A stretch of 14,080 bases of DNA from the NCBI GenBank assembly GCA_050293845.1, contig JBNKNM010000099.1:5161-19240 (forward strand), written 5' to 3'. The DNA comes from Pseudobacteriovorax sp. (GTDB lineage: Bacteria; Bdellovibrionota_B; Oligoflexia; Oligoflexales; Oligoflexaceae). Shown here in pieces: positions 12,001-14,080 of the stretch. Position 1 is the stretch's first letter; the number at the start of each line of letters is the position of its first letter. Position numbers: made by a program.

Positions 12001-14080
12001 ACATAGGGGCAAAGATTATCGACTAGGAATGGTAATCTTTGGGATTCCAGAACCTGAGTAAATAATTGAATTTGCTTTTTTATATTTGCTTTCATAAGTT
12101 TATAACCCCTATGTGAAACCTGTTGACGTCCCCATGATAGAGAAGGACCAAGATTTGGCAATATCAATGTTCTCAGACAGTCCTTTGGCCTAGCTGCAAA
12201 CCATGCCAGATTATGATCATAAAACAGTAAGTTTATTAGCTTCTAGTGATTGACAAGCGAGCACTTCATGGGTTTAGGATAGACACAACAGCTACTTACC
12301 CCCCACCTAAAGGAGGGGGCCTGTGAGGTGACTTACAAGGGAGACTAGTTGACCAGACCTCTGACAAGAAAGGATGTGCAGTACAATATGTTATTAGACG
12401 TTAACCGCAATGGAGAATTTCGCATCTACGATTCGATGCTCGCCGCAAGGCGTCTCCATTCCTCCCGGCCCTAAAGAGACCGGGTTTCTTGGAGAAATTT
12501 GATGAAAATAGGTATCTCAACAGGGGGGGGTGATTGCCCTGGCCTAAACAGCATTATCCGAGCCGCTGTACGCTGCGCTAAAGAGCGGTTCAACTATGAA
12601 ATCTGGGGAATTAAAGATAGCTTTAATGGATTATTCGCAAAACCCTACGGAGTCTGGGAATTGGATGTCGAAAAGGTTTCGGGCATCCTCAGTCGTGGGG
12701 GAACCATTCTGGGAACGACCAATGCAGGTAATCCATTCAGTCTCAAGAATGATAATAACCAAAGGAAAAATAGTCATAACGTAAGCCAAAGTGTTGTTTC
12801 AGCTTATAAAGAGCTTGGACTTGACTGTATTATCGTAATCGGGGGAGACGGCACTCAAGGTATCGCCTACGAATTATCAAAGTTGGGGATCAATATCATT
12901 GGCATTCCCAAAACTATCGACAATGATCTTGCTTCTACCGACCAGACCGTTGGCTTTGATACCGCTGTCCAAGTAGCTGCTGATGCCATTTCTCGCTTAC
13001 AAACGACAGCGGAGTCTCACGCAAGGGTCATGATTCTTGAGGTGATGGGGAGAAATGCAGGTCATATAGCCCTTCATGCTGGCATTGCTGGAGGGGCCCA
13101 TTGCATCCTTATCCCGGAGATACCTTTTGCATATGAGGCCATCGTACAAAAAATCCATGAGCGACAACAAAGGGGGAAAAATTTTAGCGTCGTTGTCGTC
13201 GCCGAGGGCGCCTTCCCTAAAGGGGGCCAGGAAATGTTTAAGCAGGAGGTATCCGGGCGACAAAATTTAGGTGGGATTGGTCAAATGGTGGCCCAAGAGC
13301 TATATAATCGGATCAAATTAGAGACTCGTGTTACAGTATTAGGCCATATACAAAGGGGAGGAACCCCCACACATTATGATAGAATACTGGGAACTGCTTA
13401 TGGCGTTAAGGCCATTGAAATGGCGAGCCAAAAAAAATATGGCAAAATCGCTTCATTCCGCGGCGGTCGCATGGAAGAACTGGATTACAAGGCTGTCGCT
13501 GGTAAGTTTCGGCCCATTGCTGCCAACGACCTCCATTTAGAGACCGCTAAAGCGATTGGTATCTGCGTCGGTGAAGCATACACAAGGAGTTAAAGTTGCG
13601 AGCACTCTACAGCTTTAATGCGTCAGAGTATTCTTACAGACAAGTCCCGAACCAGTAGTACCTGGGCGGGCTCACAACTACCTCATTTTAACGCAGTATT
13701 AACAGCGTTTTCCATGGGGGCTCAGACGTTTTTTACGTAAAACGCGTGCTTTTTTCTTGGCGCGTAGTTTGGCCGTCTTTCTTCTATTACGGGGTGGTCT
13801 ATTTTTTTTCATGCTCTACTATCCCTACCAATTCAAAGCAATTTGTATTTTTTACTCAGCTTGTCAAACCGAAGCGAGGGGAGACTATACATGGTATACA
13901 GGATGAGAGCAAGCAATTACTTCGTCCTCCTCCTGCCCTGGAAATTTGTGAGTTTTTCTGGTTAATTATTGCATGATAACCATTTTAGCGAGGGGATACT
14001 GAGGGTCAATTACCCCCACCTAAAGGAGGGGGCTTGTGAGGTGACTCGCAAGGGAGACTAGTTGCCCAGACCACTAGCAA

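Follow-up and report, generated by a model that had tools for sequence, protein, structure and literature searches.

A decayed IscB/HEARO-derived element situated on host start codons in Pseudobacteriovorax

In the window analyzed here, a 14,080-nt stretch of a Pseudobacteriovorax sp. contig, a short element separates the 6-phosphofructokinase gene pfkA from the DNA upstream of it, and the last base of the element directly adjoins the pfkA start codon. This arrangement raises the questions of whether the start codon belongs to the host or to the element, whether other copies occupy start codons more often than expected, and how such an insertion is tolerated.

The preliminary description placed the element at 12292–12506. 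The sequence is as described there, and alignment to the family consensus and to the Rfam model shifts the left boundary, which is more likely to be 12291 than 12292. The features of the locus are as follows.

12291–12501, plus strand: internally deleted, non-autonomous IscB/HEARO (ISC, IS200/IS605-type) element of 211 bp, recognized by BLAST to ~880-bp sister copies.
12291–12298, plus strand: degenerate 5' terminus, GCTACTTA, where the family consensus is GTCAATTA (alignment of 29 left ends, 31 left-end core matches).
12299–12319, plus strand: 5' subterminal hairpin, CCCCCC-ACCTAAAGGA-GGGGG (Rfam alignment, model positions 9–30).
12291–12389, plus strand: remnant of the omega-RNA (HEARO) scaffold, most of the model being deleted (RF02033, 15.8 bits, E 0.55; identity via homology to full copies).
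12398–12404, plus strand: deletion junction, a 7-nt overlap (GACGTTA) of two BLAST segments that hit separate parts of the 880-bp copies.
12410–12502, plus strand: 30-codon mini-ORF, MENFASTIRCSPQGVSIPPGPKETGFLGEI and a stop codon, corresponding to the C-terminal end of IscB (intact 442-aa IscB relatives finish in the same tail); its TGA (12500–12502) shares one base with the pfkA ATG (TGATG).
12464–12484, plus strand: 3' subterminal hairpin, CCCGG-CCCTAAAGAGA-CCGGG, at the target-side end, which is the TnpA 'left end' in the transposase convention (kept in 46 right ends).
12491–12494, plus strand: GGAG, Shine-Dalgarno (SD)-like, 7 nt 5' of the host ATG (same spacing in 45 of 46 ends).
12502–12506, plus strand: ATGAA, the transposition target and TAM (TTCAT on the opposite strand), comprising the host start codon and the first two bases of codon 2 (45 of 46 ends).
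12502–13593, plus strand: pfkA-like 6-phosphofructokinase gene, 363 aa (Pfam PFK, protein 2–200 to profile 1–186, E 1.4e-66).
14005–14080, plus strand: second copy, consensus-type, beginning GTCAATTACCCCCACCTAAAGGAGGGGGC, left end only, cut by the contig end.

The two BLAST segments, residues 9–113 and 107–215 of the query, correspond to the left and right parts, respectively, of the ~880-bp copies at C14:43952-44837 and C275:453-1333. Similar words are present in the C14 long copy at both sites matching the deletion junction, and the deletion at 12398–12404 was probably microhomology-mediated. The hairpin at 12299–12319 is the first stem of the HEARO/omega RNA, with a presumed role in TnpA binding. 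As judged from the family consensus, the terminal cleavage motif of this copy is mutated at the 5' terminus, which suggests that the copy at 12291–12501 is no longer mobile and now serves as the pfkA leader, an immobile relic.

A scan of 12050–12600 for promoters and terminators found no terminator and nothing promoter-like on the plus strand; the minus strand has one promoter-like site. A similar yield is expected from shuffled sequence, and the scan thus carries no information. Among DNA contigs from three runs of one study, two cross the left junction with 0 differences and none bridges the whole element; no polymorphic empty allele was seen in these contigs, which cannot show its absence.

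The proposal that the family is a decayed IS200/IS605-type derivative of IscB/HEARO elements is supported by the HEARO scores of the long copies, the RRXRR/IscB remnants, and the homology to intact IscBs. The HEARO scores of 98–120 bits given previously hold for the long copies (C10, 119.7; C275, 99.1; C14, 98.4), but not for the pfkA-side copy, which lies well under the gathering score of 83 and is unmatched at gathering because its middle is deleted. By its sequence, the pfkA-side copy is a derivative, not a functional member, of the HEARO/omega RNA family. RRXRR remnants were recovered at five places in the genome, the best scoring 189 bits (C321), in agreement with the preliminary description. 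The remnant ORF is 70–78% identical to intact 442-aa IscBs with the same ...PGPKETGFPGEV tail, and one intact 442-aa relative, P0002, which shares the tail of the pfkA-side mini-ORF, ends in ...IPPGPKETGFPGEV. The IscB remnants in the genome are 173–197 aa long, and intact 442-aa relatives were found only among metagenome proteins; since the assembly is fragmented, an intact iscB copy may be hidden. What the pfkA-side copy retains of an intact iscB ORF (PLMP/RRXRR, RuvC, HNH and TAM-interacting domain) is 30 C-terminal codons.

The family also exhibits the structural traits of the ISC group. Imperfect subterminal hairpins are present at both ends without terminal inverted repeats (29–31 left and 46 right ends), and the elements lie beside ATGAA without target-site duplication, the left flanks being unrelated and orthologous ATGAA sites being unoccupied in the relatives G001 and G002. 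The genome contains 23 matches to the Y1 transposase profile PF01797, several apparently full length, and the tnpA loci at C31 and C232 carry an end hairpin similar to that of the element, with ATAAA as the flank. Three size forms occur in the family, of about 880 bp, 211 bp, and roughly 45–55 bp with a single hairpin; relics of the last form, consisting only of one hairpin and the GGAG tail, precede RuvB-, Hsp70-, GalE- and glyoxalase-like genes. The element DNA was not found in any of 130 further genomes of the phylum, with three candidates scored in each. An iscB gene is present in 13 of 131 genomes of the same phylum, with different 3' ends and without the stop-ATG arrangement; these genes were left out of the start-codon count.

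The copy search yielded at least 40 matches, with 40 of 90 candidates scored, and BLAST yielded 77 HSPs. Forty-six right ends were collected, of which 45 adjoin ATGAA and one (C208) adjoins CTAAA, so that the earlier statement that the right end always abuts ATGAA has a single exception. GGAG 7 nt upstream, previously counted in 47 of 49 ends, is found again in 45 of the 46 ends (44 of the 45 that adjoin ATGAA), and positions -10 to -8 are invariant across the right ends. A fuzzy right-end search gave mostly spurious matches with 5 mismatches; a tail search added C7 and C74 as real copies, besides four chance matches. None of the additions from either search is counted among the 45. Most copies end at contig ends, and their left and right flanks cannot be paired. 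An assembly artefact was rejected, since each flank is unique.

At pfkA, the G001 genome, which lacks the element, reads ...ggagaccat followed directly by ATGAAAATAGGT, and in G001, G002, G004, and G005 the pfkA orthologues have their ATG or GTG start at this same position. For all three genes checked (pfkA, an mpl/murC-like gene, and leuD), the orthologues of the relatives begin at the same aligned ATGAA (or GTGAA/ATGGA), with a native SD and no element. The empty site reported earlier in G001 is thereby borne out for pfkA, and the other two genes are added to it; in each case what is seen is an orthologous site (about 70% identity) that is unoccupied, rather than a pre-insertion allele. These comparisons support ATGAA as a pre-existing target that lies outside the element.

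The counts in the same genome support the view that roughly one copy in two occupies an authentic host start codon, a share well in excess of all of the nulls built. An ORF of at least 80 aa is opened by 23 of the 45 ATGs adjoining elements (22 of 45 at a threshold of at least 100 aa), and the excess reported in the preliminary description (18 of 40 and 23 of 49 copies) is thus upheld. The null, as start/(start + intergenic), was 14.7–17.9% with home-made gene calls (81% coding), 19.2% when weighted by the sixth base, and 16.3% when built independently of the gene calls. Against these values the observed count gives p of about 1e-6 to 1e-8, and the excess would still be significant were the null as high as 33% (p 0.009). 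In addition, 1 of 45 copies is inside a gene, whereas 74.5% of ATGAA sites are genic.

Pfam searches on 25 downstream ORFs placed the first domain colinear with the N-terminus in 17 and revealed N-terminal truncation in 0; six further ORFs have signal-peptide or lipoprotein N-termini, as judged by eye. The remaining 21 of the 45 copies are intergenic and off starts, with the next gene opposite in 12 and co-oriented in 9; these orientations lend no weight to the idea that sense transcription is needed. The left flanks provide independent evidence for docking on starts: a displaced SD was detected in 7 of 32 (a set that includes 3 from a related but different family), compared with 6.2% at random positions; the displaced motif noted previously is present, with a lower count than the 9 of 32 given.

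Related intact elements in other genomes behave likewise. In named genomes, 36 of 60 IscB loci are on start codons (35 after Pfam), compared with 16.7% of the ATGA sites in their flanks, and 18 of 33 unique metagenome loci are on start codons. These counts support docking on start codons by the intact relatives, as had been claimed, in an independent sample; for the subset with an overlapped stop codon, the count is 13 of 22 (by eye) and not 13 of 17.

The statement that the element brings its own Shine-Dalgarno is supported only in part: as a sequence feature, GGAG is at the native spacing in 44 of 45 ends of the Pseudobacteriovorax family, but a putative SD of this kind is not general across the wider clade. 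An SD-like motif precedes 57% of the native starts in the genome, with a mode of 5–7 nt for the GGAG spacer, and the 7 nt of the element are thus within the native optimum. Among the wider-clade ends, an SD-like motif is present in only 20 of 60, in 9 of the 36 at start codons vs 11 of the 24 elsewhere. Since start occupancy is no higher with the motif, an element-borne SD would not be what enables docking generally, and the motif is lineage-specific. In many of these relatives the IscB stop is 27–34 nt 5' of the ATG; together with the scarcity of the motif, this means that docking requires neither SD donation nor stop-start overlap.

The conservation of GGAG may also be unrelated to translation, because the same bases encode Gly-Glu in the IscB tail and sit in the end recognized by the transposase. 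The C-terminal tails of IscB relatives are read in different frames (P0011 vs P0002), and the tail is probably conserved at the DNA level. In the consensus copy, and in that copy only, a stem between GGAG and an upstream CUUCUCC is predicted (z -2.0), which could mask the SD. Predicted RNA folds of the element 3' end are not distinctive (z -1.2 to -2.0).

How the element may come to lie on start codons can be outlined from what is known of the family. A Y1 (HUH) TnpA acting in trans would paste the single-stranded element 3' of TTCAT, without target duplication, and insertion at TTCAT would leave the IscB-distal end directly before ATGAA on the other strand. Because ATGAA encodes Met-Lys/Asn and opens 15–21% of the genes in this genome, many permissible targets are start codons, and with its insertion geometry fixed, the element would face the gene. 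GGAG, in the terminal bases of the element, then lies 7 nt before the host ATG, and the TGA of the IscB frame, here the 30-codon remnant, overlaps that ATG; thus, the displaced native RBS could be replaced, and termination-reinitiation would be possible. Host transcription from upstream would read through the guide, the scaffold, IscB where present, and the host gene. An IscB element would need such read-through because its guide lies outside the element.

Taken together, these observations are probably best explained by a non-autonomous IscB/HEARO deletion derivative that persists on start codons, where it would compensate for the RBS that it displaced. We judge that the start-codon excess comes mainly from differential survival, in which genic insertions are purged while insertions at starts are harmless and kept. 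An extra contribution of target preference to the excess is possible, and the relics may become indispensable 5' leaders.

A further-reaching reading, which we put forward tentatively and hold to be somewhat short of an even chance, is that the start codon is a safe harbor. The ATGA(A) target and TAM, shared by a large IscB clade, would have evolved so that host promoters transcribe the guide, the omega RNA, and iscB as a single transcript, the host gene would be translated from the element end, and the 45–210 bp relics would be domesticated leaders on which the host gene has come to depend. Host translation from the last bases of the element would use an RBS in some lineages; in the rest, stop-start overlap or an A-rich leader would serve. 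The guide of each such copy would be the host 5' UTR, and the same starts would be recurrent landing sites across species.

Conversely, the arrangement could be incidental: the transposase needs only TTCAT/ATGAA, genic insertions are purged, GGAG and TGATG are by-products with no adaptation or host service, and the null is underestimated. The target and the TAM are indeed already known properties (PMC4810608; 10.1101/2023.03.14.532601), 40 of the 60 related ends have no SD-like motif and occupancy is independent of it, the relatives' tails differ in frame, and the young copies alone are not significant if the true null is assumed to be 29–33% (p 0.10–0.23). However, against each of three nulls constructed in different ways the same genome shows a roughly threefold excess, two independent sets of other genomes show an excess again, and 0.2–1.8 kb of DNA that parts a gene from its promoter and RBS should harm more than an average intergenic insertion unless the element compensates. 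We therefore regard an incidental origin as unlikely.

Active targeting, in which the transposase or its need for single-stranded DNA prefers initiation regions (an extended ATGAAA, or weakly structured A-rich DNA), would produce the excess from insertion onward. Consistent with this, near-consensus (young) copies are already at starts in 13 of 32 cases vs 19% (p 0.004), 17 of 24 ATGAAA sites are at starts vs 22.7% expected, and in two Methanosarcina genomes (L099, L149) distinct element subfamilies, one in each, lie on the start of the same orthologous oxidoreductase gene. No sequence is conserved 5' of the insertion point, however, weighting by the sixth base shifts the null little, and occupancy increases with copy age, from 13 of 32 near-consensus copies to 10 of 13 diverged ones (a weak contrast, Fisher p 0.047), which targeting alone does not predict. 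These results make targeting, as the main cause, quite improbable. Finally, the invariance of ATGAA beside the element is what terminal element sequence would show, but that the element carries it, so that start codons or gene fusions would arise anew at each landing site, is hardly credible and was rejected, given that pfkA, the mpl/murC-like gene, and leuD have element-free orthologues that start there with their own SD, that Pfam domains begin at the N-terminus in 17 of 25 downstream ORFs, and that Kapitonov et al. used empty sites to show that ATGA is the target (PMC4810608).

The position of about half of the copies on starts suggests a way to insert without silencing the host gene. Start-codon docking, if true, would mean that the promoter of the host gene supplies the IscB guide RNA, which is encoded outside the element, and it would explain how a promoter-less element of 0.2–1.8 kb escapes purging although it parts a gene from its control region. 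The TAM of IscB elements, which are the ancestors of Cas9, would then gain a biological meaning beyond transposase chemistry. Docking also predicts an origin as element relics for many annotated bacterial and archaeal 5' leaders, and it cautions annotators that a start codon behind such a repeat is a genuine one.

Neither the ATGA target nor the TTCAT TAM is new; both have been published. In Kapitonov et al. (2016, PMC4810608), ISC elements have the target N|ATGA, and the ISC transposons ISC1-1_MA (Microcystis), ISC2-1_HM, and ISC2-1_MS resemble the present family in the 5'-GTCA terminus, the insertion 5' of ATGA without duplication, the subterminal hairpins, the usual lack of their own TnpA, and the multicopy state. 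In contrast to them, the pfkA-side copy lacks IscB and most of the omega RNA, and two features are additional in the Pseudobacteriovorax family: GGAG at 7 nt from the target and a TGA that overlaps the ATG. The accessible text of that paper does not tie the target to starts, with 0 occurrences each of 'start codon' and 'initiation codon' (PMC4810608), and literature searches, which covered open-access papers and bioRxiv, found no mention of start codons in connection with IscB/ISC elements.

In the IscB elements of Geobacillus stearothermophilus, the TAM is TTCAT, the reverse complement of ATGAA, and the omega RNA joins the transposon end to an outside guide, so that transcription must start outside (10.1101/2023.03.14.532601). 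The consulted parts of that study (Meers et al., 2023) describe this guide outside the element, the need for outside transcription and a bias to co-oriented upstream genes, and thus cover the upstream side, whereas the downstream gene, start codon, RBS, and coupling were not found there, the one match to 'start codon' being a figure axis. By our own crude count, the nearest upstream gene here is in the same orientation in 24 cases, opposite in 11, and missing in 7.

PATE/REP-like and MITE-like derivatives are short, non-coding, and hairpin-bearing, and are moved in trans by Y1 transposases. Such non-autonomous IS200/IS605 derivatives are named in PMC4810608; the present element differs from them in its descent from an IscB element rather than from an IS200 or RAYT partner, and in its fixed position relative to host starts. 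Overlapping stop-start gene pairs (ATGA/TGATG) with termination-reinitiation coupling, as reported by Huber et al. (2019, PMC6728339), are similar in the 1-nt (TGATG) or 4-nt (ATGA) overlap, here between the IscB frame and the host gene. In the present case, by contrast, the upstream partner is a mobile element ORF or a 30-codon relic, and the coupling is putative.

Tn7 at attTn7, downstream of glmS, is a safe-harbor insertion. IStrons splice out of host genes (PMC13565253). Both resemble the present element in a choice of site that spares the host; the element differs in mechanism, with no protein-guided attachment on the downstream side of a gene and no RNA splicing, and docking on the start codon would instead replace the leader.

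Two copies of a decayed IS200/IS605-type IscB/HEARO (ISC) element lie in the window, the first directly upstream of a phosphofructokinase gene (Pfam PFK, protein residues 2-200 against profile positions 1-186, E 1.4e-66).

12291-12501, + strand: 211-bp repeat, starting GCTACTTA-CCCCCCACCTAAAGGAGGGGG and ending CCCGGCCCTAAAGAGACCGGGTTTCTTGGAGAAATTTG
directly 3' of the repeat, to 13593, + strand: pfkA-like ORF of 363 aa, beginning ATGAAAATAGGT...
14005-14080: second copy, consensus-type, left end only, GTCAATTACCCCCACCTAAAGGAGGGGGC... and then the contig end

No Rfam family matched at its gathering score anywhere in the window, and the HEARO model (RF02033), run in E-value mode, gave only 15.8 bits for 12291-12389, with most of the model skipped. 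In the same genome, a 215-nt query gave 77 BLAST HSPs, and at least 40 matches were found when the best 40 of 90 candidates were scored. BLAST places the left-hand 105 nt and the right-hand 109 nt of the window copy in two ~880-bp copies (C14:43952-44837 and C275:453-1333), which hold an omega-RNA region and an ORF of 193-197 aa between the shared parts; as judged from this alignment, the window copy is therefore an internal-deletion derivative of the longer element, and its two BLAST segments share a 7-nt overlap at 12398-12404. Its initial eight bases differ from the family GTCAATTA, and we infer from this altered 5' terminus that excision would no longer be possible. The left flank of the second copy ends ...GCGAGGGGATACTGAGG, in which an SD-like (Shine-Dalgarno-like) GAGG precedes the insertion point by 11 nt. 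In the metagenome runs X1 and X2, which contain the locus, element ends were seen at about 100-160x the depth of the flanks (contig word depth summed over window 12269-12514; the ratio should not be read as a copy number). These runs are very rich in the element or in close relatives carried by other organisms.

The HEARO scores of contigs C10, C275 and C14 were 119.7, 99.1 and 98.4 bits, respectively, and five remnants matched Pfam RRXRR, the best of them on C321 (189 bits, frame broken after 173 aa). Intact IscB proteins of 442 aa from metagenomes share 70-78% identity with the C275 remnant and terminate ...RCSPQGFSIPPGPKETGFPGEV, the tail encoded by the final 90 nt of the element. Since most copies stop at contig edges, at about 63-77 nt, the repeat evidently interrupts the assembly. 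In a search of 130 genomes from other species of the phylum, with the best three candidates scored in each, no DNA of the element was detected. The genome encodes Y1 transposases (23 PF01797 matches), and two tnpA genes are followed, at C31:~493 and C232:~7859, by a hairpin plus tail, CCTGCACCTGAAGGAGCAGGTTTTCCGGCGATTTCTG/ATAAA, resembling the diverged right end on C387; these loci, flanked by ATAAA, are candidate trans-mobilisers. A separate repeat family has a near-identical first hairpin (GTCAAGTACCCCCACCTGAAGGAGGGGGCTTCC...; C165:12543(-), C108:910(+) and C2:80946(+)), and its C2 copy adjoins a Y1 transposase remnant (C2:80415-80543).

The right ends are followed by ATGAA in 45 of 46 cases and by CTAAA in one, with unrelated sequence farther out, and the left ends (n = 29) have no common flank. 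Judged from orthologues, the ATGAA belongs to the host and not to the element, because in relatives lacking the element these genes start at the equivalent codon. In the same-genus genome G001, pfkA without the element reads ...aaaggagaccat/ATGAAAATAGGT, and the equivalent codon is GTGAA in the relatives G002, G004 and G005. Likewise, the C46 copy lies before an mpl/murC-like gene whose start reads ggaggactta/ATGAAACTT in G002 and ATGAAAAAA in G001, and the C128 copy before leuD, which begins with ATGAAT in G002 and with ATGAAA in G001; in both relatives, an SD native to the gene and an upstream in-frame stop accompany each of these two starts. A TPP-enzyme query, which gave paralogue-level matches only, was left out of this comparison. 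These data agree with the N/ATGA targets shown for ISC elements with 5'-GTCA termini by Kapitonov et al. (2016, PMC4810608) and with the Geobacillus IscB TAM, TTCAT, the reverse complement of ATGAA, given by Meers et al. (2023, 10.1101/2023.03.14.532601).

The 45 flanking ATGs open ORFs of at least 100 aa in 22 cases, at least 80 aa in 23 and at least 40 aa in 25. When up to the first 200 residues of each of these 25 ORFs were searched, 18 matched a Pfam family and seven did not. In 17, the first domain starts at profile position 14 or lower and inside the first 35 residues (protein/profile: PFK 2/1, Hsp70 7/2, Mur_ligase 8/1, Epimerase 4/2, LacAB_rpiB 3/1, GST_N 1/3), and none of the matched ORFs has an N-terminally cut domain. 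Six ORFs, five without a Pfam match and one with a weak match, have signal-peptide- or lipoprotein-like N-termini by eye. With our gene caller, a crude one that gave 5621 genes (81% coding) and itself missed two of the 23 starts, the 45 sites were 23 starts, 21 intergenic sites and one site within a gene on the opposite strand. The excess of starts was compared with several nulls.

Expected and observed frequencies at the 45 sites
called starts among all ATGAA sites (24,000+): 3.5-4.9% expected
starts among non-genic sites (start plus intergenic): 14.7-17.9% expected, 22/45 observed, p 6e-8 to 2e-6
non-genic, sixth-base weighted: 19.2% expected, 23/45 observed, p 1.5e-6
without gene calls, ATGAA then ORF of at least 80 aa: 16.3% expected, 23/45 observed, p 7e-8
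without gene calls, ATGAA then ORF of at least 100 aa: 14.6% expected, 22/45 observed, p 5e-8
genic share of ATGAA sites: 74.5% expected, 1/45 observed, p 3e-25

The total excess stays significant at an assumed non-genic null of 29% (p 0.0012) or 33% (p 0.009), and in the ATGAAA subset 17 of 24 sites are starts against 22.7% expected. The left flanks provide independent evidence, because they lie on different contigs from the right ends: among 32 flanks, three of which represent a related but different element family, 7 have an SD-like motif at 4-11 nt upstream of the insertion point, compared with 6.2% of random positions (p 0.003).

Near-consensus copies, with at most three mismatches to the consensus over the last 55 nt, lie at starts in 13 of 32 cases (p 0.004 against 19.2%), compared with 10 of 13 diverged copies (Fisher p 0.047). 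The copies elsewhere show no orientation bias: the gene that follows is co-oriented in 9 cases, opposite in 12 and lacking in 1. In addition, five or six copies have shrunk to about 45-55 bp, in which a single hairpin lies between the left terminus and the GGAG tail:

C7:32357-32400: before a 342-aa ORF, RuvB-like by eye
C19:9338-9380: before an Hsp70-like gene
C17:54645-54681: micro-copy
C30:8081-8124: before an epimerase gene
C63:1058-1097: before a glyoxalase-fold gene

In these micro-copies, four of which precede long ORFs, the left-end and right-end hairpins are apparently fused via a shared CTAAAG loop, leaving the terminus, a hairpin and GGAGAAATTTG; they resemble single-hairpin elements of the REP/PATE type. 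The age contrast and the micro-copies would fit a scenario in which copies at start codons survive and become fixed as leaders, and an initial preference for such sites is also possible.

An alignment of 17 intact relatives led to 79 loci from named bacterial and archaeal records, of which 75 were left after exclusion of one 210-nt locus and three whose IscB frame runs off the contig. An ATGA occurs within -3 to +45 nt of the IscB stop in 60 of these and in none of the other 15, and its ATG opens an ORF of at least 80 aa in 36 of the 60, compared with 16.7% of 3010 flank ATGA sites of the same loci (p 5e-14). Pfam matches were obtained for 31 of the 36, with first domains at or near the N-terminus (MoeA_N 12/1, SelR 9/1, ABC_tran 17/1, Response_reg 4/1, Dala_Dala_lig_N 6/2, ADP_PFK_GK 1/1, LolB 31/2) except at L121, whose removal leaves 35/60. 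At this locus of an Oligoflexia MAG (L121:1283-1573), the ATGAA overlapped by the IscB stop leads into a Y1 transposase that is truncated at position 32 of the 121-position profile; either the element inserted into a tnpA gene, or this is an ISC-Y arrangement in decay. The L121 end, GGAGAATTC/ATGAA, shows the greatest similarity to that of the window copy. For the subset with the ATG overlapping the stop or immediately after it, we counted by eye 13 starts in 22 loci, lower than the 13 of 17 overlapping cases given in the preliminary description. In two Methanosarcina genomes, an orthologous FAD-oxidoreductase start (MKK[HY]DVIVVGAGVSGLLAALTLSKHGKKVLVLEK; L099, ~4278, and L149, ~253) is occupied by IscB 3' ends that differ, ..CTGAGGGTTT/ATGAA and ..CTTATGAGG/ATGAA, and may be a case of recurrent insertion at one start codon.

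A second sample of 80 metagenome loci, fetched with the relative IscB protein P0002, was reduced to 70 by leaving out eight with a match short of the C-terminus and two run-offs. The 38 informative loci comprise 33 unique ones, and an ORF of at least 80 aa is opened in 18 of these 33, as judged by ORF length and against the null (16.7%) taken from the named-record flanks. No ATGA lies near the stop in 21 of the 70, several of which are flanked by ATGG. Six metagenome loci (L197, L203, L205, L220, L225 and L234) have the conserved end ..CCTAAATTTT and then ATGG (ATGGCA, ATGGGT, ATGGCC...), a flank that is again start-codon-like. The target in the wider clade may be ATGR, as these flanks suggest.

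GGAG stands 7 nt upstream of the ATG in 44 of the 45 ATGAA ends, and positions -10 to -8 do not vary among the 46 ends, even where adjacent positions have drifted. Among 2948 unambiguous ATG starts of the same genome, 57% have GGAG, GAGG or AGGA at a spacer of 4-11 nt, and the native GGAG spacer peaks at 5-7 nt. The IscB frame stop TGA shares its A with the host ATG (TGATG), an overlap retained by a 30-codon remnant in the window copy (ATG 12410 to TGA 12500-12502). Spacing and overlap are facts of sequence; use by the ribosome is putative. That the element brings its own SD describes this lineage but not a general trait: of the 60 named-record ends, only 20 carry an SD-like motif spaced 4-11 nt from the ATG (9 of 36 start-codon ends versus 11 of 24 others). 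These belong to Methanosarcina subfamilies (GAGG), one Singulisphaera locus and one Oligoflexia MAG; the ends from Vibrio, Photobacterium, Psychromonas and Myxococcota are A-rich, often with the IscB stop 27-34 nt upstream.

In the consensus right end, an anti-SD-like CUUCUCC before the terminal hairpin complements the SD-bearing GGAGAAG (e.g., L004:50-103; window 12452-12497), and in the diverged C387 and C67 copies the sixth pair is altered on both sides (AUCUCC/GGAGAU). Folding predicts that the GGAG region pairs with the upstream CUUCUCC in a consensus copy (z -2.0) and that in the window copy this partner can alternatively pair with AUGGAGAA farther upstream. Two readings of the CUUCUCC/GGAGAAG pair are conceivable: at the DNA level, it may be a feature of the end used by the transposase; at the RNA level, it may act as a lock that translation of the IscB frame would open. 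Because the tails of related IscBs (P0011 versus P0002) are read in different frames, the constraint on this stretch is suggested to act at the DNA, not the protein, level.

Overall, the element identity, target and start-codon docking put forward in the preliminary description hold, given the HEARO and RRXRR matches, the unoccupied orthologous ATGAA and the nulls, and docking is real beyond one genome (23/45 own, 35/60 named records, 18/33 metagenome). A search of open-access full texts, together with passages of PMC4810608, 10.1101/2023.03.14.532601 and the 2026 review PMC13565253, found no mention of docking on host start codons, RBS replacement or overlap of the IscB stop with a host start; an earlier description may exist elsewhere. 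Prior work already covers the element class, its ATGA target and TAM, its dependence on transcription from outside and the co-orientation of upstream genes. The upstream co-orientation trend of Meers et al. (10.1101/2023.03.14.532601) is matched here, the nearest upstream long ORF being co-oriented at 24, opposite at 11 and absent at 7 of the 42 named-record loci with sufficient flank. Start-codon docking is rated as a new behaviour of this known element type.
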